45,266 bases of DNA, taken from the IMG/VR virus record IMGVR_UViG_2531839130_000013; one strand, 5' to 3'. Each line of letters begins with the position of its first letter. Within the stretch, counting starts at the first letter, position 1. The translations under genes were made by a program, and so were the position numbers. The DNA is from a virus (Duplodnaviria; Heunggongvirae; Uroviricota; Caudoviricetes). The notes beneath the pieces were generated by a model, which saw only the letters and a list, made by a program, of their open reading frames with translations, was not told where the DNA came from and made no database searches. Below are positions 1,419 through 12,322 of the stretch, one piece after another.

Positions 1419-3890
1419 TTAAAAATCAGCCTGACTCGGGATCAGTTTTTGCCAGATAGCTGAAACGTATTTTGCCTGGTAACGAGCGTCATCAAGTGCA
1501 TTATGGCGCTCACCTTCGAATGGGATAGCAGTTCTGGCATCGAAGTCTATGGCTTTCCCCAGCTCAACGATTGTGCGTACATCGCGATCGTTGTAGTAAC
1601 GCCACGGGCAGGGGATCCCCTGCCGCTCGTATGAACGGCGCAAAATAGTGTTGTCGAAGTTGGCTCCATTTCCCCAGACCTGAACAAAAAATTCACCGGA
1701 GTTTTCGTCGATAAATTCCCGCAATTGTAACAGTGCATCATCTAACGGGATTTCATCGGTCATAATGGCAGATTGCGCTTCGCGTGATTGTTTAAGCCAC
1801 CATTTAATGGTGTCCCGATCAATGACTCCGCCAGCAGTTTCCAGATCGATAGTCTTACTAAATTCCGGTCCCATATCTCCGGTTTGCGGATCGAAAAATA
1901 TTGCACCTATTGAGATAATCGGGGCATCGGGATTTTTTCCCATGGTTTCAAGGTCGATCATCAGATGAATCCCCGCTCTGCTGGTGGATGTGAGATTATG
2001 ATGACCGTTCGCCTTAATTAAGGGATCTGACGCCTCGCCAGTTTCACTATCGCTGGCATGATGCTGATTGCCGCCAGTGTTCTCCTTGTGCTGATGCGCA
2101 GTGCCTTCCATTTCCTCCGGATCATTTTCCTGAACTTCAGGCTGATTCTCTCCATCGAATATTTCCTGGTATGTTGCGTCACCCATCACCGCACCACAAT
2201 CAGGGCAGTTGCCGCCACCGCTCTGACCGCAGGCGGTGCAGATCTTTTCCGGTTCCTGTTGCACTACTGGTTCAGGTTGTTTCGTTTCTGGCTCGTTTTG
2301 TTGCGTATTTTGGCTGTTTTGTTCCGCTTTCTGGTCGTTCTGTTCCGTTTCTTGCTGGTTCTGGTTCGCAGAATCGCGGGTCTGGATCCCCTTAACCCAT
2401 TTCGGATCATTCGGGTCGCTAATCCCTTCAACAAATTCACCACGTGATACTGCAAGCAGTTCATCGGCGTCAGGCTGGCTGATATTGGCTGCCTGCATAA
2501 TTTTGTTTACTTCGTCAGCGGTAACTTTTACCGGTTCTGGCTGTGCGGTCGTGTCAGATGCACCAGTATTTTGTTGTGAACCTGAGTATGTACTGTTTTT
2601 GCGGGCGAAATATTCTTCTTTCGTGATTTCAGTAGCCCCGGCAGCCAGCGCCTTATCCAGACCAGAAAGTTTGTTTGCGCGACCGTATTTTTCGCCATCC
2701 TTGTCGGTGAAGAGGAAGTAGAACGGCCCCTCACGCTCTACAGATGGTTCGACTTCCACTTTGCATTCGGTTTTTTCGTTGTCCGGAATTGCCGTTTCCA
2801 CTGCATCAGTTTCTGGTACTGGCGACGAGAGAGTATCAGTTGCGCTCTGATTTGTTCCTTCATCTTCAAACACGCCCTTTGTAGTCAGGTATTCAGTAAT
2901 GTATTTGTTCAGTGCCACAGGATCTTTGTGAATGTCGATCGGACGTCCACGGACAAGGCCAAAAATAGTCTGGCGGTCGTAGCGAAGGGCATCAGGCTGT
3001 TTGCGCATCGATGCCGAGATACGCTTCCAGTCTTCGCGGTCGTTGTCGATAACTTCATTTTTTGCCCAGCGATGGATGCTGCCGTCAATGTTTCCGGCAT
3101 CCACATCACCAGGCCAGAGAGCGTAGGCCAGTTCGTCATCCAGTGTTTTCCATGTCTGCTTGTATTCGCGATGAATGACTGCAGTGACAGGGGAGATATT
3201 TTCTGCTGAGTTTTCAGTGTGCTGTCGGTTGACTCTGGCGCGGGCGAGATCAACAGCAGACGTGTATTTTCCGGTTTCCTTGCGTTCACCTTCGCGACGT
3301 TTTTTCCAGATGCGCATCTCTGCCTGAATTTCGGGCCATTTAGCTCCAGGCTTACATTTATGCTTAACCCACCCGATGGCATGCAACTTAAGTTCTGGAT
3401 ACATGGCGTTAACTTCTGGCATTTTCATCAACGCTTCAACGATATGTCCGTCGAATGTTGCCATGTCTTCCTGCAACAATTCCTGCGCGCTAATCACCAT
3501 ATCAACGGTGATGTTTTCACATGTGTCGAACTTAACCATGACAGCGTTCTGTACTTCAGGGGCCAGCTTGTCAAAAGTGACGTTCATCGGATCTGATTCA
3601 GTCTCAACCGGGACAAAGGAAGCAGACTCCTCATCCCAGCGGTTTTCCTGCATATATTCAGCATCCCAGGAATCGAGGGCAGGGCGGGGTATACCGGGTT
3701 TATCCTCGCAAACAAGAAATTTATAAGCGCAGTCCTGAGCAGCCGGATAATGCTCCAGGAATTGCCAGTGAAATTTTGCGCGGGCGCGACGTTCATCACC
3801 GGCTTCAATGGCAGTGGCTACAGCGACTGCACCTTCTTCCTTTATTGCCTGTTCGTCCGGAATGGCGGCGCAAATAAAGACTTTACTCAT
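1419..3890 (-). CDS. Large exonuclease-like protein with C-terminal DnaQ-like (DEDDh) 3'-5' exonuclease domain
   Basis: 823-aa ORF. C-terminal third has exonuclease motifs (IDLET..., HNALDDARY); central part is acidic and Q/N/E-rich with a Cys4 cluster (CTACGQSGGGNCPDCG). Sits where lambdoid recombination genes lie. Confidence 0.6.
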   Translation of the reverse strand: MSKVFICAAIPDEQAIKEEGAVAVATAIEAGDERRARAKFHWQFLEHYPAAQDCAYKFLVCEDKPGIPRPALDSWDAEYMQENRWDEESASFVPVETESDPMNVTFDKLAPEVQNAVMVKFDTCENITVDMVISAQELLQEDMATFDGHIVEALMKMPEVNAMYPELKLHAIGWVKHKCKPGAKWPEIQAEMRIWKKRREGERKETGKYTSAVDLARARVNRQHTENSAENISPVTAVIHREYKQTWKTLDDELAYALWPGDVDAGNIDGSIHRWAKNEVIDNDREDWKRISASMRKQPDALRYDRQTIFGLVRGRPIDIHKDPVALNKYITEYLTTKGVFEDEGTNQSATDTLSSPVPETDAVETAIPDNEKTECKVEVEPSVEREGPFYFLFTDKDGEKYGRANKLSGLDKALAAGATEITKEEYFARKNSTYSGSQQNTGASDTTAQPEPVKVTADEVNKIMQAANISQPDADELLAVSRGEFVEGISDPNDPKWVKGIQTRDSANQNQQETEQNDQKAEQNSQNTQQNEPETKQPEPVVQQEPEKICTACGQSGGGNCPDCGAVMGDATYQEIFDGENQPEVQENDPEEMEGTAHQHKENTGGNQHHASDSETGEASDPLIKANGHHNLTSTSRAGIHLMIDLETMGKNPDAPIISIGAIFFDPQTGDMGPEFSKTIDLETAGGVIDRDTIKWWLKQSREAQSAIMTDEIPLDDALLQLREFIDENSGEFFVQVWGNGANFDNTILRRSYERQGIPCPWRYYNDRDVRTIVELGKAIDFDARTAIPFEGERHNALDDARYQAKYVSAIWQKLIPSQADF

Positions 3891-3982: not shown

Positions 3983-4174
3983 TTAAAGACCTGCCGGGAT
4001 TTCGTTATTATCCTGGTGAATAACTTTATCGACCGGGTAACAGTTACCGGGAATTTTCTGTTCGGTTGCTGCAGTCATACATTCCTGCATTGTCCTGTGA
4101 ACACTGACTGCAATATCAACTGGCTCTCCGGAAACAAGATAAACTGTCAGAACAAGCGCAAATGCTGAATTCAT
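3983..4174 (-). CDS. ydfD: Small membrane protein, YdfD-like (Qin prophage lysis protein family)
   Basis: 63-aa product MNSAFALVLTVYLVSGEPVD... with N-terminal hydrophobic segment; its ATG overlaps the dicB stop (ATGA). Start chosen at the internal Met of the 81-aa track ORF. Assignment from memory of Qin prophage synteny. Confidence 0.45.
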   Translation of the reverse strand: MNSAFALVLTVYLVSGEPVDIAVSVHRTMQECMTAATEQKIPGNCYPVDKVIHQDNNEIPAGL

Positions 4175-4359
4175 TGTGCACATCCTTTTGGCATCAGACG
4201 TAAACGAGCCAGCATTGAAACAATGCATATTTTATTTAATAGCTCCCCTTCTTGTTTTCTCTTGTTAATGGCATCTTCAGTAAATACTGAGTTACTGATA
4301 GTGACACCAATTTCAAAACAACCTTCAGACGTATTAACGTTTGGTAATAACGTTTCCAT
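4171..4359 (-). CDS. dicB: Cell-division inhibitor DicB-like protein (62 aa)
   Basis: Internal Met of the 97-aa track ORF gives METLLPNVNTSEGCFEIGVTISN...LMPKGCAQ, 62 aa, matching my recollection of DicB almost residue for residue; GAGGA Shine-Dalgarno about 9 nt upstream; directly downstream of the DicF sRNA as in Qin. Confidence 0.6.
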   Translation of the reverse strand: METLLPNVNTSEGCFEIGVTISNSVFTEDAINKRKQEGELLNKICIVSMLARLRLMPKGCAQ

Positions 4360-4528
4360 TATCGCGTCCTCAACAATGAATTTTGTGATGCGGTGCCTGG
4401 TGCCTCCAGGTGACGTTAACCAGTTAACAATTAACGCCGGATACAGAGAACCCACCCATAACACTGTTTTTGGTTTTAACTGTTCCGCGTGCGCTTAGCC
4501 GCATTCACCGCATCACAAAATTCACTTT

Positions 4529-4586
4529 AAAAAGGGCGGCAGAGCAGTCACGGAGTAAAACTGATACCGCTAAACGCCACCAGAAA
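4529..4586 (-). ncRNA. dicF: DicF small RNA (ftsZ-targeting sRNA of Qin-type prophages)
   Basis: Reverse complement of 4534-4586 reads tttctggtggcgtttagcggtatcagttttactccgtgactgctctgccgccc, near-identical to the 53-nt DicF sequence as I recall it, followed by a U-tract on the minus strand. A perfect 9-bp stem (4612-4620 / 4640-4648) lies just upstream in transcript order. Confidence 0.7.
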
Positions 4587-4920
4587 ATTGATAACAGAGG
4601 GCGTTGCAGCGGGGTTGTCACTTAAGCGTATGGTCAACCTGACAACCCGGTGTCCTCAACGGGGAAGGAATAACCCCGCCATACTTACCGCCGCGCCATT
4701 TCGCGGATTGCCACAACCGGAAGCGCACGGTCGACGAAAATTTAACGACAGGCTATCTATGAACCAGCAACCTCGCCGTGCGCTTTCGCGTTATGCTCTG
4801 ACTTTTCAGAGAAATATCCTTTCAGTAAACTGTCAGTACCGGATGCTCACCCGTGTCCGGCGCACGCACTCCACCTCACCCGTGGAGAACTCCTTAAGTA
4901 CCAACCCTCAGGATGGTGAA

Positions 4921-5142
4921 ATGACTAGTAAAAATGTAAATATCCAGTTTAACCACGATGTTTCTCCTGCCGGACTTGCGGATGAACTCACTGCTATAAA
5001 AACAGCAATTATGCTACTTGTTGCTAAGTTGCCAGCAGCATCACAACCATCAGATATTTGTGACTCATTACGTAAGATGAATTCAACAAAATGCAACGAG
5101 ATGGCATCACTTATTGAAATAGCTATTGATTTTAATGATTAA
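4921..5142 (+). CDS. Hypothetical small protein (74 aa), opposite in orientation to the left operon
   Basis: ATG at 4921 inside a longer track ORF, weak SD (GGATGG); protein-like composition; 3' end overlaps the convergent minus-strand gene by 11 nt. Could be a shadow ORF. Confidence 0.25.
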   Translation: MTSKNVNIQFNHDVSPAGLADELTAIKTAIMLLVAKLPAASQPSDICDSLRKMNSTKCNEMASLIEIAIDFND

Positions 5143-5506
5143 TCGAAATCTCATGGCTAACTGTAACACTCCCGTCTGTGGCGGGATGCTTTAAATCACA
5201 GGAGTTAACGCTTTTTGTTGCAAAGTAATTTTCAAGGGGGTCTATTCGAATCCCTTTCTTTTTCATTAACAAGCCAAACCCCTTATCAATGATGTCCATT
5301 AGATCCAGGAAGTATTTTTTATGTAAATCCTGGTTATCAGAGAGCTGCTTCTCTTCGTACAGACCGATAAAGGCACGACGCACGTTACCGGATATAGTAT
5401 AGATGGTTTCTTTTTCTACGGTACTCAGGTCAAGAGTCGCCAGTTGGGAACGAACTATATTCGCTGCCATTTCCTGGAATTGCATTGGTAAATCTTTAAA
5501 TTCCAT
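5132..5506 (-). CDS. Hypothetical protein (124 aa)
   Basis: Clean ORF tightly packed in the leftward early operon; no recognisable motif. Confidence 0.5.
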   Translation of the reverse strand: MEFKDLPMQFQEMAANIVRSQLATLDLSTVEKETIYTISGNVRRAFIGLYEEKQLSDNQDLHKKYFLDLMDIIDKGFGLLMKKKGIRIDPLENYFATKSVNSCDLKHPATDGSVTVSHEISINH

Positions 5507-5528: not shown

Positions 5529-5747
5529 TTAACGTGGGTATGTAATCATTCTGGCAATGCTTAATGCCGCTGCTTTTTCCAGCCTGGTGATATCCTGCTC
5601 CAGAGCGGACAGATTTTCAGCCTGCTTAGCCCTGGCTTCATTGGCCCATTTCAGATCCTGCGCTGCATTAATTTTCTGGCGCATCCACTCATAAAGTTCA
5701 TCATCGGTATAGTCTTGTGCGATGATGACGGGTTCTCGTTTCTGCAT
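5529..5747 (-). CDS. Hypothetical protein (72 aa)
   Basis: ORF in the leftward operon, predicted coiled-coil-like composition. Confidence 0.45.
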   Translation of the reverse strand: MQKREPVIIAQDYTDDELYEWMRQKINAAQDLKWANEARAKQAENLSALEQDITRLEKAAALSIARMITYPR

Positions 5748-5775: not shown

Positions 5776-5904
5776 ATCAGCCGTTAGATTTTGCGGAACT
5801 GGAAAGCGCCTGTTTAAATTCGTTGAAGCTGAGAGCTTCTTCGCCTTCGGCAAGACCTTCGAAGTATTCTTCGTAAGCCTTTTCCATGATTGTGTCGAAA
5901 TCCA
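5776..5904 (-). CDS. Hypothetical small acidic protein (42 aa)
   Basis: Hand-translated minus-strand ORF MDFDTIMEKAYEEYFEGLAEGEEALSFNEFKQALSSSAKSNG with SD-like GGTGAGTG upstream; fits the gap between neighbours. Below the size cut-off of the ORF track. Confidence 0.35.
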
Positions 5905-5906
5905 TA

Positions 5907-6143
5907 TCACTCACCTGAGTTTCTTTCCAGCCAGCGACGGGCACCATTTTCGGTTTTAAACGTTTTGCTTTTGGTATACGTCATCGCGGTGAACGTACCG
6001 TCCTGGTTGGGGAACACGCCACATACCAGAGATTCGCTGTTGCCAAGATCGATAGTATCCATGCTGACCTCATTTCCCCTTAACGCCGGGGTAGCGGAAC
6101 AAAAACCTGCTGCATAGTTATTAAAGTTGAACCCTGCCGTCAT
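5907..6143 (-). CDS. Hypothetical protein (78 aa), first gene of the leftward early operon
   Basis: ORF directly downstream of the candidate pL-type promoter; start may be at an internal Met. Confidence 0.45.
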   Translation of the reverse strand: MTAGFNFNNYAAGFCSATPALRGNEVSMDTIDLGNSESLVCGVFPNQDGTFTAMTYTKSKTFKTENGARRWLERNSGE

Positions 6144-6241: not shown

Positions 6242-6269
6242 AGTTTAATAAACATTAAACTTAAGTCAA
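6242..6269 (-). promoter_or_regulatory. Candidate leftward early promoter (pL-like): -35 TTGACT, 16-bp spacer, -10 TAAACT on the minus strand
   Basis: Minus-strand hexamers are identical to those of the candidate rightward promoter at 7257-7286; ACTAAAC-like operator motifs nearby (6254-6260, 6276-6282). Confidence 0.4.
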
Positions 6270-6353: not shown

Positions 6354-6632
6354 TTAGGGAAACTGGCGTCTTGCGTGGATCACGTTTACTACTTCAACGC
6401 TTGATGTTGTTACGCGGTATAGAATTATATAGTTAGGGTGGGCTACAATCTCACGCAAGCCAGGTACTCTGTCGCTTGGTGGGTATAAATACGGATGTTC
6501 GGATAACGGCAGCACACAACCCCTTAATCGCTGCCATAAGCGTTCAGCCGCATCTATGTCGAAACGAGCAATATAACTAGTTATATCATCTAGGTCGGTA
6601 TCTGCGCTTTCAAGCCATAACACGGGTAACAT
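6354..6632 (-). CDS. parE: ParE/RelE-family type II toxin (about 92 aa)
   Basis: C-terminal region REIVAHPNYIILYRV...VEVVNVIHARRQFP is typical of the ParE/RelE fold; start placed at internal Met (MLPVLWLE...) abutting the antitoxin stop. Sizes (92 aa toxin, 63 aa antitoxin, upstream repressor) match the three-component PaaR-PaaA-ParE prophage modules of E. coli O157 as I recall them. Confidence 0.75.
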   Translation of the reverse strand: MLPVLWLESADTDLDDITSYIARFDIDAAERLWQRLRGCVLPLSEHPYLYPPSDRVPGLREIVAHPNYIILYRVTTSSVEVVNVIHARRQFP

Positions 6633-6633
6633 T

Positions 6634-6825
6634 TTACTGCTTGCTCCGTTCCTTGCGCATTTTAGCAAAGCGTTCTGCCATTCTGCGCTCAACTTCGTCA
6701 TGGGGAATTGCTGGGCGTGGATCTGCAAGGCTCGTTGCTACTTTTGCACGCAGCCATTCGTTGTAACTGTTTTCTTGTTCAATGGTTTCAAATTCAGAAA
6801 CCATTGGTGAAAGGGCTCTATTCAT
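6634..6825 (-). CDS. Antitoxin partner of the ParE-like toxin (63 aa, PaaA-like)
   Basis: Start MNRALSPMVSEF... preceded by GGAGGA SD; small acidic/basic protein immediately upstream of the toxin with near-adjacent stop/start. Confidence 0.6.
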   Translation of the reverse strand: MNRALSPMVSEFETIEQENSYNEWLRAKVATSLADPRPAIPHDEVERRMAERFAKMRKERSKQ

Positions 6826-6845
6826 GTTTCCTCCGGTTTTATAAC

Positions 6846-7217
6846 TCAGGCGCGGCGGCATTTTTGCGCCGCAATCCATCTCGCTATGAGATCTTCCATT
6901 GATTCTTTTTTCTGCTTTAACTCGCTGATTATCTGGCGTTGCTCATCCTCAGGGAAGGCTGAAAAAATCTGCAATAATTCCAGTTGATTAGACGTTAACC
7001 CTGCATGTGGTGGAGAAACCTCCGGTTGTTCTGCGTATTCCGCATCCAGATACCCTTCCGGCATCCCGTATGTTTGCTCTATTCTTCTGGCAGCCTTTTC
7101 TCCAAACGAGGCTCTCCCACTCATTAGTTGAGATAGGTAGCTCTTCTCTTTGGGTGGCAGAGTTTTATCTTTAAACCACTCCTTGAGACGTAAACGGCGA
7201 ATTTCTTTTTTTTGCAT
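6846..7217 (-). CDS. Phage repressor-like HTH regulator (cI/DicA/PaaR-like), probably leaderless
   Basis: HTH-like segment KSYLSQLMSGRASFGEKAARRIEQTYGMPEGYLD; C-terminal LELLQIFSAFPEDEQ resembles the DicA C-terminus. Start set at MQKK (7217) because the longer 158-aa reading runs through the divergent promoter and the cro-like start; a GATAAT -10 sits 6 nt upstream of this ATG. Confidence 0.7.
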   Translation of the reverse strand: MQKKEIRRLRLKEWFKDKTLPPKEKSYLSQLMSGRASFGEKAARRIEQTYGMPEGYLDAEYAEQPEVSPPHAGLTSNQLELLQIFSAFPEDEQRQIISELKQKKESMEDLIARWIAAQKCRRA

Positions 7218-7223
7218 GTGGTA

Positions 7224-7305
7224 ATTATCTTTAGTAATCACTAAACAAGCAAATACTTGACTTAATGGTTTATTAAACACTAAACTCTCAAAAAAAACAC
7301 TAAAC
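7224..7305. promoter_or_regulatory. Divergent promoter/operator region: leftward pRM-like promoter, rightward pR-like promoter, three CACTAAAC repeats
   Basis: Leftward -10 GATAAT (7224-7229 on +) and -35 TTGCTT (7247-7252) with 17-bp spacer; rightward -35 TTGACT 7257-7262, 18-bp spacer, -10 TAAACT 7281-7286; direct repeats CACTAAAC at 7239-7246, 7278-7285, 7298-7305. Confidence 0.45.
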
Positions 7306-7315
7306 CGAGGAAGGT

Positions 7316-7618
7316 ATGACATTAAAAGAGTTTATTAAATCATTGAGGGTTGGTGATGCTAAGAAATTCGCAGCCAGACTTGGTGTATCGCCATCTTACT
7401 TATCGCAAATGGCGTCTGGACGAGCAGCTATATCTCCAACACGCGCCCTTATGATCGAATCTGCGACGGAAGGCCAAGTAAGTAGGGCGGAGCTACGACC
7501 CCATGATTGGGAGCTTATTTGGCCTGAGTATGCGAGCGGCATTCGTTTGGGGCAAACACATGTAGTTCATGCTGAAGGTGATTGTAGTGCATGCTTATCT
7601 GATGGAGTTGATTCATGA
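7316..7618 (+). CDS. Cro-like HTH protein (YdaS-like)
   Basis: 100-aa ORF divergent from the repressor, GAGGAAGG SD; HTH-like FAARLGVSPSYLSQMASGRAAISPTRAL; position equivalent to cro. Confidence 0.65.
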   Translation: MTLKEFIKSLRVGDAKKFAARLGVSPSYLSQMASGRAAISPTRALMIESATEGQVSRAELRPHDWELIWPEYASGIRLGQTHVVHAEGDCSACLSDGVDS

Positions 7619-12082: not shown

Positions 12083-12262
12083 TTTTATGGATCACCTTTC
12101 TGATTGATTTCATATTGGCGAGGTAGCAGGAGTTAAGTAGAATTGCTGCGGGTGCTTGAGGCTATCTGTCTCAGGCATGAACACCAAAAGGCAGATAGAG
12201 AAAAGCCCCAGTTAACATTACGCGTCCTGCAAGACGCTTAACATTAATCTGAGGCCATATCT

Positions 12263-12322
12263 ATGCGACACATAGAGATTAGCCTCTTACGGACCGAAAG
12301 GTCAAGGAGAAGCGGGCTATGA
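12263..12322 (+). CDS. Short leader ORF (19 codons) whose stop overlaps the hok ATG (mok-like coupling ORF)
   Basis: atgcgacacatagag... ends in TGA overlapping the hok ATG (cTATGAag); the leader region is rich in inverted repeats typical of hok mRNAs. Confidence 0.3.
   Translation: MRHIEISLLRTERSRRSGL

Follow-up and report, generated by a model that had tools for sequence, protein, structure and literature searches.

The dicF-dicB-ydfD cassette of a Qin-family prophage: a typical copy with a structured RNA between dicF and dicB

Introduction

When a lambda prophage is derepressed, Kil, encoded in the early left operon, blocks FtsZ-dependent cell division, and in this respect it resembles the dicF-dicB-ydfD cassette that is the subject of this work. 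We know of no sequence relationship between the cassette and lambda Kil or other division inhibitors of pL operons, and to our knowledge lambda has neither a DicF-like sRNA nor a MinC-dependent mechanism.

[quoted passage not shown] In K-12, a processed, Hfq-bound DicF of 53 nt accumulates and represses ftsZ (PMC10448788, PMC5069750), DicB causes a MinC-dependent block of FtsZ-ring formation and also inhibits ManYZ (PMC10448788), and overproduction of YdfD results in lysis through inhibition of IspG (PMC8835842). The sRNA passes through a 190-nt precursor with a 5' end made by RNase III, and formation of the 53-nt species requires RNase E (PMC10448788). A 72-nt form of DicF has a 3' end that is generated by RNase III (PMC9438474, PMC5069750). 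As of 2016, phage genomes with the cassette were not known (PMC5069750). Here we describe the cassette in a 45,266-nt stretch of viral DNA (IMG/VR record IMGVR_UViG_2531839130_000013; hereafter the window) and compare it with these systems.

Results

Identity and distribution of the cassette

The minus strand of the window carries dicF at 4534..4586, dicB at 4171..4359 and ydfD at 3983..4174. DNA identity to K-12 is 96-98% across the three genes and both flanking intergenic regions. An initial annotation made from the sequence had named all three genes, including a near-perfect DicF at 4534-4586 for which it proposed an Rfam scan, and its identifications were right by Rfam, Pfam and K-12 alignment. 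Aligned over all 53 nt, dicF is identical to its K-12 counterpart at 51 positions, the substitutions being A10G and G16A, and the match to Rfam family RF00039 at 4534-4585(-) covers the full-length model with 68.6 bits (gathering score 48; E 3.8e-13, whole window). The gene for the 62-aa division inhibitor DicB is 98.4% identical to that of K-12 at the DNA level and 59 of 62 residues are shared; residues 1-62 align with positions 1-62 of the Pfam DicB profile (PF05358) at 133.2 bits against a gathering score of 27, and a Shine-Dalgarno sequence, GAGGA, is located at 4367-4371(-). YdfD, a 63-aa DUF1482 protein with a lysis function known from K-12 (PMC8835842), is identical at 60 of 63 residues and scores 88.4 bits with PF07358 (gathering score 25). 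The stop codon of dicB overlaps the start codon of ydfD in an ATGA at 4171-4174, through which ydfD is predicted to be translationally coupled to dicB.

The cassette was found in 4,652 of 5,426 complete E. coli genomes and, at full length, in eight sequenced phages; functional phages that carry it include Tritos, mEp460 (mEp460_ev081), HannyBb and PhiR42_1. In all loci examined the gene order is ydfA-like genes, DicF, dicB, ydfD, exonuclease, xis and int, and this synteny is the same in K-12 Qin, strain 720632, phage Tritos and 15 of 15 dicB loci. The dicF-dicB-ydfD genes of the window are a real, ordinary copy of a well-studied cassette in its usual place. The observed sequence identity, family membership, gene order, helices and helix covariation, together with the K-12 literature on processing and function, support, with a probability of about 0.92, the explanation that this is a bona fide and apparently intact cassette in its native early-left (pL/dicBp-type) operon slot, with K-12-like processing and activities, carried by a Qin-family lambdoid prophage that retains int, xis, the full-length exonuclease gene and morphogenesis genes.

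A rare DicF allele

Nucleotides 17-53 of DicF are identical to K-12 and are followed by CCCTTTTT. The RNA retains the 3' region for pairing with the ftsZ and pykA mRNAs and finishes with an intrinsic terminator hairpin and a U-tract at 4529-4533(-). A simple terminator scan did not call this terminator; because the pattern of the scan excludes an interrupted stem and a long loop, we relied on the Rfam structure. The G16A substitution breaks the basal G16-C52 pair of the terminator stem, a pair that the Rfam alignment marks as non-canonical. The exact combination of A10G and G16A is rare, being present in 16 of 3,925 dicF-bearing records. The 16 carriers may simply be clonal relatives among ETEC strains.

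It is possible, though we consider it the less probable outcome, that the two substitutions alter DicF, in that nt 6-12 would pair with nt 46-52 on the 3' strand of the terminator, hide the 5' seed for xylR and change the terminator hairpin. In the ViennaRNA ensemble the probability of this alternative helix goes from 0.00 in K-12 DicF to 0.99-1.00 with A10G or with the window allele, the mean unpaired probability of nt 4-13 drops from 0.90 to 0.31, and G16A weakens the canonical hairpin from −15.9 to about −13 kcal/mol; the non-canonical basal pair and the rarity of the allele point in the same direction. However, these values are thermodynamic predictions for an isolated 58-nt RNA, apart from Hfq, co-transcriptional folding and the precursors, and the alternative fold still has a GC-rich stem followed by a U-tract, such that termination may be unaffected. 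Moreover, the ftsZ-pairing 3' part is unchanged, the alleles were not discriminated by RNAduplex against the K-12 ftsZ and xylR leaders (near-full-length duplexes, with energies at most 1.1 kcal/mol apart), and the possible clonality of the carriers also counts against this reading. Folding thus suggests a possible departure from K-12 in how efficiently DicF terminates or in its action on 5'-seed targets, and this would not conflict with our main reading of dicB and ydfD.

The surrounding operon

The gene dicF lies after ydfC and ahead of dicB in an operon under repressor control, and the proposal that the cassette lies within an early left operon of this kind was borne out. Downstream of ydfD, on the same strand, are, as the next gene of the operon, that for a full-length 823-aa exonuclease (1419..3890; Rv2179c-like Pfam domain, phrog_2082), which corresponds in intact form to the K-12 pseudogene ydfE disrupted by IS2, and, at the distal end of the operon, genes for an excisionase (1088-1366) and an integrase (1-1119), both assigned by PHROG family. 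Upstream, also on the minus strand, are a 124-aa ORF that is absent from K-12 at this position (5132-5506), a ydfC-like ORF (5529-5747), a 56-aa ORF (5777-5947) and a ydfA-like DUF1391 gene (5907-6143). A consensus scan gave a candidate pL/dicBp-like promoter, TTGACT-16-TAAACT, at 6242..6269(-), and the conserved operon leader starts directly downstream of it. The immunity region (6846..7618) consists of a repressor-like gene on the minus strand (6846-7322; PHROG transcriptional regulator families) and a divergent Cro/YdaS-like gene on the plus strand (7316-7618; PHROG transcriptional regulators and Pfam YdaS/HTH_3/P22_Cro).

The initial annotation had taken the cassette to be apparent mosaic cargo, a Qin-type module inside an otherwise lambda-like early left operon. 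Lambdoid phages are mosaic, and either dicF-dicB-ydfD or kilR can occupy the division-inhibitor slot, as illustrated by the natural recombinants L109, in which kilR comes after DicF, and L031, in which dicB comes after a Rac-type hairpin; to this extent the description holds. The lambda-like setting is not supported. Since the entire operon (ydfA/DUF1391, ydfC, dicF, dicB, ydfD, the full-length ydfE-type exonuclease gene, xis and int) is collinear with the dicB operon of Qin, it does not fit the picture of Qin cargo among lambda-like genes. Its ORFs have matches to DUF1391, to PHROGs of unknown function, to the Rv2179c-like exonuclease, and to xis and int; homologues of N, cIII, gam, bet and exo were not detected among them, and no lambda early-left families were matched, whereas a lambda-type pL operon would have N, cIII, kil and gam/bet/exo-type genes around the cassette. 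The flanking genes are all Qin genes in Qin order, and on either side of dicF the intergenic DNA shares about 97% identity with K-12. The discontinuities are found at the immunity region and the insertion of the upstream 124-aa ORF, and among loci the variable parts are the immunity region and some of the small upstream ORFs. We therefore regard foreign origin as unlikely, and native residence in a Qin operon remains our preferred reading.

Processing sites of DicF

The published RNA ends were computed onto the window, which placed the 5' end of the 190-nt precursor at about 4723 (4534+189), the 5' end of 53-nt DicF at 4586 and the 3' end of 72-nt DicF at 4515. Since the sizes of 190 and 72 nt were estimated from gels, the cuts can be placed only to within a few nucleotides. 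A further statement in PMC10448788 is that RNase III cuts "between positions 813 and 814"; we could not reconcile this numbering with 190 nt when we deduced the start of transcription from the length of the 1,146-nt transcript, and the size-based estimate was used. For an experimental RNase III cleavage map of the locus, PMC5371410 gives only a citation of Faubladier.

Of the computed ends, 4723 and 4515 lie within the strongest two helices. The first is an imperfect leader hairpin at 4718..4788(-) in which 4776-4788 pairs with 4718-4730 (inverted repeat I3; 13 nt, 92% complementary; fold z = −2.24), which is probably the RNase III site that gives the 5' end of the 190-nt pre-DicF. In the leader alignment this hairpin shows two wobbles and one mismatch only; among the 15 DicF loci aligned, variation was too low for a covariation test of helices I3, I4 and I2. 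By alignment with K-12, the 53-nt 5' end maps to an AU-rich single-stranded junction, AUCAAU|UUUCUGG (4586..4592, minus strand), and we infer that RNase E would cut at the 4586/4587 junction in the window as well.

A different element had been proposed as a possible processing stem that releases DicF from a longer transcript, namely a 9-bp stem (GGGTTGTCA/TGACAACCC; arms 4640-4648 and 4612-4620, 19-nt loop; 4612..4648, minus strand). The stem is indeed a perfect inverted repeat just upstream of DicF, 26 nt from its 5' end and inside the 190-nt precursor, and it is present in the minimum free energy (MFE) folds of the leader. Stem-loops beside an RNase E site can help to position cleavage, MicL being an example, and this counts in its favor. 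On the other hand, RNase III needs about two helical turns (about 20 bp) of double-stranded RNA, for which 9 bp is too short. The published ends, about 4723 and 4515 for RNase III and 4586 for RNase E, an enzyme that cuts single-stranded RNA, all lie outside 4612-4648; the stem falls between these sites and, with both RNase III ends outside it, differs from a site with a mapped end. About 16% of the dinucleotide shuffles made of 4360-4910 also contain a perfect inverted repeat of at least 9 bp, and the fold z-score is −0.9; the stem alone is not beyond chance. Furthermore, its 3' arm has an alternative partner at 4665-4679 (repeat I2) that competes for it, and no compensatory change was seen among 15 distinct leaders. 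A processing role for this stem is accordingly very improbable.

A structured spacer between dicF and dicB

The second helix, overlooked in the initial annotation, closes a structured spacer RNA at 4375..4526(-). Its arms at 4506-4524 and 4377-4395 (repeat I1) form 19 perfect base pairs, extendable to 21, and enclose four to five inner hairpins, among them CCUGGAGGCACCAGG. The spacer has an MFE of −66.8 kcal/mol (z = −6.56). Covariation supports the fold, with 93% of cells paired compared to 33-40% when the partners were slid, and with seven pairs changed on both sides. The 19-bp helix itself is 98% paired over 15 homologues (two compensatory and five wobble-only pairs). It offers the approximately 20 bp of double-stranded RNA, with a mapped end inside, that characterize an RNase III site: the computed 3' end of 72-nt DicF, 4515, corresponds to position 10 of the 5' arm. 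The placement of the published ends onto the helices suggests that the 19-bp helix holds the RNase III site for this end. That the repeat acts instead as DNA, as a protein-binding palindrome or recombination site, is the weakest of the alternatives and hardly credible. In its favor, the two arms are a perfect palindrome pair in DNA and the junctions of dicB-type/kilR-type recombinants fall at or near the 3' arm. Against it, the arms are 110 nt apart, natural substitutions (K-12, strain 41 and kilR types) are mostly G·U-compatible and keep RNA rather than DNA pairing, compensatory changes also occur in the inner hairpins, and the published RNase III-dependent 72-nt end lies inside the 5' arm.

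The spacer matches the Rfam family STnc100 (RF02076) with 38.4 bits (E 1.1e-6, 851-nt search), below the gathering score of 47, and kilR-type spacer copies score 32.9-43.8 bits; it is a relative of STnc100 and not a curated member. A link between the family and this locus is absent from PMC12370729, which mentions DicF once in an unrelated context, and from the Pas preprint, which mentions none of DicF, dicB and kilR. We also considered that STnc100-type motifs might always be gene leaders; this was rejected, as 107 G/C-variant copies are without a consistent downstream ORF.

Discussion

What is known of RNA processing and of the activities of the proteins and the sRNA comes from the K-12 literature, and for the present copy the following route would apply by analogy. 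In the lysogen, the prophage repressor would hold the operon off, and derepression would lead to a polycistronic RNA. In transcripts that end at the intrinsic terminator of DicF, RNase III would trim the leader helix near 4723 to give the 190-nt intermediate, and RNase E would then cut at 4586/4587 to give the 53-nt, Hfq-binding DicF. In read-through transcripts, RNase III would cut in the 19-bp helix that closes the structured spacer, which would leave 72-nt DicF and an mRNA for dicB and ydfD whose leader is short. DicB would recruit MinC, blocking FtsZ-ring assembly, and would also inhibit ManYZ; YdfD would inhibit IspG, with lysis when overproduced. The expectation of the initial annotation that derepression would block host division is in keeping with experiments on the K-12 operon (PMC10448788, PMC5069750).

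As it stands, the presence of the cassette matters little, DicF, DicB and YdfD being textbook prophage regulators that are found in most E. coli. Three uses remain. The corrected processing anatomy allows RNase III and RNase E sites to be placed properly when such loci are annotated. The cassette is seen to be part of the conserved backbone of a Qin-type phage that is intact, whereas work in K-12 has been limited to a decayed remnant. Attention is also drawn to the STnc100-related, covariation-supported spacer common to dicB and kilR leaders, which, if borne out by experiment, could explain how toxic division inhibitors are gated after read-through of the DicF terminator.

A more speculative suggestion, which we offer tentatively and would not expect to hold in full, is that the spacer is a divergent STnc100/PasD sRNA excised by RNase III via the 19-bp helix, and that it serves as a conserved 5' control element and as a recombination joint for dicB-ydfD and kilR in Qin/Rac-type phages. 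If so, the dicBF operon would encode two regulatory RNAs, and the orphan STnc100 family would gain its first mechanistic context. Possibly, Rac-type loci have a DicF paralogue of different seed upstream of kilR.

Comparison with known systems

The likeness to STnc100/PasD extends over the whole spacer, which aligns end to end with the model. Both have a multi-hairpin architecture, a closing helix that ends in GGUG/CACC, and a CCNGGAGGCACCNGG hairpin that is conserved and in which N/N covaries as U-A or G-C. They differ in the closing helix, which is about 9 bp in canonical copies and 19 bp in the window spacer, and in context, since canonical copies have no consistent following gene and are placed elsewhere in prophages, for example downstream of stx2.

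In Rac-type prophages and in Stx phages (Rac-SA53, Shigella phage 75/02 Stx), the kilR locus occupies the same slot, between ydfA-like ORFs and the exonuclease gene. It has the same structured leader of about 165 nt before the division-inhibitor gene (82-91% identity) and, upstream, a terminator hairpin with a stem resembling that of DicF. The differences are that the KilR protein is unrelated to DicB, that ydfD is absent, that the upstream hairpin scores 39-41 bits against the DicF gathering threshold of 48 and is without the DicF 5' seed, and that a bulge and a G·U pair interrupt the closing helix, which in the window has 19 perfect pairs.

Among phages, Tritos, mEp460_ev081, HannyBb and PhiR42_1 contain the full 678-nt region at 96.5-98.1% identity. 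Tritos, the one of the four for which the annotation was inspected, has repressor/cro, small ORFs, DicF, dicB, ydfD, exonuclease, xis and int as in the window. Phages with the cassette differ from the window in immunity, replication and small-ORF content, and no phage record covering at least 80% of the first 25 kb of the window was found.

The K-12 Qin dicBF operon (ydfABC-dicF-dicB-ydfDE) has the same genes in the same order, the same processing helices and the same ATGA overlap of dicB and ydfD. In the window, the exonuclease (ydfE), xis and int genes are intact, whereas those of K-12 are IS2-disrupted pseudogenes. The immunity region of the window is of a different type, with a ParDE-like pair adjoining the repressor, and an extra ORF, encoding 124 aa, lies between ydfC and the dicF leader. 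Finally, the window DicF has the A10G and G16A substitutions, and the 19-bp helix of the spacer is perfect, whereas that of K-12 contains two G·U pairs.

Identity and prevalence of the dicF-dicB-ydfD cassette

The minus strand of 3983-4660 encodes DicF, a 62-aa DicB and an overlapping 63-aa YdfD, and this assignment, made in the initial annotation, was borne out by Rfam, Pfam and alignment to K-12. The annotation had named the Rfam scan and the K-12 alignment as checks and identity below about 80 percent as evidence against dicF. Rfam, run on the whole window, returned a full-length DicF match (RF00039) at 4534-4585(-) with 68.6 bits, above the gathering score of 48 (E 3.8e-13). The 53-nt dicF at 4534-4586(-) is identical to that of MG1655 at 51 of 53 positions, the changes being A10G and G16A, and the intergenic DNA on both sides is about 97% identical to K-12. 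DicB (4171-4359(-); Pfam DicB, 133 bits) and YdfD (3983-4174(-); DUF1482, 88 bits) match their K-12 counterparts at 59/62 and 60/63 residues, and their reading frames overlap in ATGA.

The cassette is a known and very common element, so that its recognition was correct but not new. The 678-nt region was found in 4,652 of 5,426 complete E. coli genomes, at a median of two places per genome and a maximum of nine, and the 53-nt dicF was found in 3,916 genomes. Sequenced temperate phages also carry the full-length cassette, including Tritos, in which DicF is annotated, mEp460_ev081, HannyBb and PhiR42_1. Balasubramanian et al. (2016) saw it in no phage genome, a statement now superseded.

Predicted DicF processing sites

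Passages on DicF processing in PMC10448788, PMC9438474 and PMC5069750, all citing Faubladier 1990, attribute the 5′ end of a 190-nt K-12 precursor to RNase III, the 5′ end of the 53-nt DicF to RNase E, and the 3′ end to an intrinsic terminator or to RNase III cleavage of read-through RNA, which gives a 72-nt DicF. We placed these ends on the window by counting from DicF. The 190-nt end maps to about 4723, on the 3′ arm of a leader hairpin with imperfect pairing (4776-4788/4718-4730; fold z = -2.24), and the RNase E cut falls at 4586/4587, where the RNA is AU-rich (AUCAAU|UUUCUGG). A perfect 19-bp inverted repeat (4506-4524/4377-4395) takes in the 72-nt 3′ end, which is at 4515, position 10 of its 5′ arm.

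A 9-bp inverted repeat at 4612-4620/4640-4648 is indeed perfect, but its proposed role as the stem that releases DicF, the one mechanistic novelty of the initial annotation, was not supported. It lies between the sites at about 4723 and 4586/4587, within the 190-nt intermediate, and the published ends map elsewhere. Stems of nine base pairs are too short to serve as RNase III substrates. Such a stem also arises in about 16% of shuffles, and its fold is no more stable than that of shuffled DNA (z = -0.9); among 15 distinct leaders it varies by only one wobble and one terminal mismatch, which gives no covariation support, and its 3′ arm could pair instead with 4665-4679. Together with its length, these points argue against it as the processing stem. 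It may have a minor role in holding the RNase E site single-stranded.

The A10G + G16A allele

The exact allele of the window is rare, being present in 16 of 3,925 dicF-bearing E. coli records, mostly ETEC strains. The pair at the base of the terminator stem is lost through G16A, and A10G is predicted to let nt 6-12 form a 7-bp helix with nt 46-52. ViennaRNA ensembles showed that A10G by itself raised the probability of this alternative helix from 0.00 to 0.99 and lowered the accessibility of nt 4-13 from 0.90 to 0.31. The 5′ seed (nt 6-12) is thus predicted to be hidden by pairing with the 3′ strand of the terminator, while the ftsZ-pairing 3′ part of DicF is unchanged. Because published work places xylR pairing at the DicF 5′ end, xylR would be the target most likely affected.

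A structured spacer shared by dicB and kilR leaders

The 19-bp helix, which the initial annotation missed, closes a 148-nt multi-hairpin RNA in the dicF-dicB spacer (MFE -66.8 kcal/mol, z = -6.56), the structured region being at 4375-4526(-). In a permissive Rfam scan the spacer aligned end to end with STnc100 (RF02076) at 38.4 bits and E of about 1e-6, so that it is a relative, though one scoring under the gathering threshold of 47. The same module, at 82-91% identity, immediately precedes kilR, a division inhibitor gene unrelated to dicB in product, in Rac-type prophages and Stx phages (L004:2996-3185, L005:3005-3203 and L007:3008-3194 in comparison contigs). A Rac-type terminator hairpin precedes the kilR module (L004:2952-3006, L007:2951-3006) and scores 39-41 bits with the DicF model, under the Rfam cut-off of 48. 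Its stem resembles DicF and its 5′ single-stranded part differs; it could represent a paralogue of DicF that uses a different seed, or simply a terminator common to both. Natural recombinants at the module occur on two IMG/VR contigs: in L109, kilR comes after a true DicF and a dicB-type spacer, and in L031, dicB-ydfD comes after the Rac-type hairpin.

Over 15 distinct dicB- and kilR-type modules, the window MFE structure was 93.1% paired, falling to 33-40% when partners were slid, and seven pairs were changed on both sides. Pairing in the closing helix reached 98.1%, two positions being compensatory and five wobble-only. Two neighbouring pairs that are G-C in the window are G·U in K-12, a pattern in keeping with pairing in RNA rather than a palindrome in DNA. 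Among core motifs on viral contigs, the inner hairpin is CCUGG/CCAGG in 30 copies and CCGGG/CCCGG in 108, and is broken in 0 of 138. In this wider family the base of the closing helix covaries, GCAUC, AUGCA and ACAAC each being matched by the complement. The long form of 19-21 bp was found in dicB-type leaders only; in kilR leaders a bulge separates 13 bp from about 9 bp, and canonical STnc100-type copies have a closing helix of about 9 bp and no consistent downstream gene.

On phage contigs L018, L083, L073, L050 and L097, stretches of 0.3-4 kb contain two to three canonical STnc100-type motifs; the family is multicopy and not bound to a single genomic slot. A 2026 preprint links STnc100 with PasD sRNAs and never mentions DicF, dicB or kilR, and a STEC vesicle study detected canonical STnc100 as RNA, one copy being downstream of stx2. 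An STnc100-like leader common to dicB and kilR is a modest lead beyond the original claim.

Operon organization and comparison with Qin

All operon features are on the minus strand. A repressor-like gene (6846-7322), a ParDE-like pair (6354-6879) and a candidate pL-like promoter (6269-6242) are followed by a ydfA-like DUF1391 gene (5907-6143), a 56-aa ORF, a ydfC-like gene (5529-5747) and a 124-aa ORF of unknown function (phrog_6937, 5132-5506). A 320-nt leader precedes dicF, a 174-nt spacer separates it from dicB, and ydfD is followed by an 823-aa exonuclease gene (1419-3890), full length and intact where K-12 has the pseudogene ydfE, then by xis and int. The operon matches the Qin dicB operon of K-12 gene for gene except for the phrog_6937 ORF, which K-12 lacks at that spot, and the gene order of the window recurs in strain 720632 and phage Tritos.

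The cassette had been described as Qin-type cargo in an otherwise lambda-like operon, a description that did not hold. Family searches with the operon ORFs matched no lambda early-left family. The order ydfA-like to DicF, dicB, ydfD and exonuclease (then xis and int) was found in 15 of 15 dicB-bearing loci from genomes and IMG/VR with sufficient flank. Sequence breaks lie elsewhere: one in the promoter/operator region, which varies with immunity type while the transcribed leader just downstream is held in common, and one at the phrog_6937 insertion, present in some dicF loci (L056, L075, L109, L031) and missing from others. The cassette is therefore operon backbone.

Within the ParDE-like pair, which occupies the position of rexAB in lambda, a Pfam ParE_toxin domain begins at about residue 36 of a 124-aa ORF, and an overlapping 81-aa ORF upstream could be the antitoxin; the pair also occurs in L033, L115 and L046. 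Divergent promoter-like sites at 6242-6269(-), upstream of the dicF operon, and 7257-7286(+), upstream of a cro-like gene, have identical hexamers (TTGACT ... TAAACT), suggesting a pL/pR-type pair of a single immunity type. Elsewhere, a sok antitoxin RNA at 12150-12321(+) (RF01794, 105.5 bits) indicates that the prophage has a type I toxin-antitoxin locus of the hok/sok kind, and tRNA-Met (CAT) and tRNA-Arg (TCT) genes (16957-17032 and 17130-17206, both +) sit upstream of late and lysis genes.

Since the sequence is nearly identical to that of K-12 throughout, the favoured reading is that this copy behaves like the operon of K-12. In the lysogen the operon would be silent under repressor. [quoted passage not shown] Coupling of induction to division arrest, as originally suggested, is plausible since the prophage, with int, xis, replication, lysis and morphogenesis ORFs, looks complete and in this differs from Qin.
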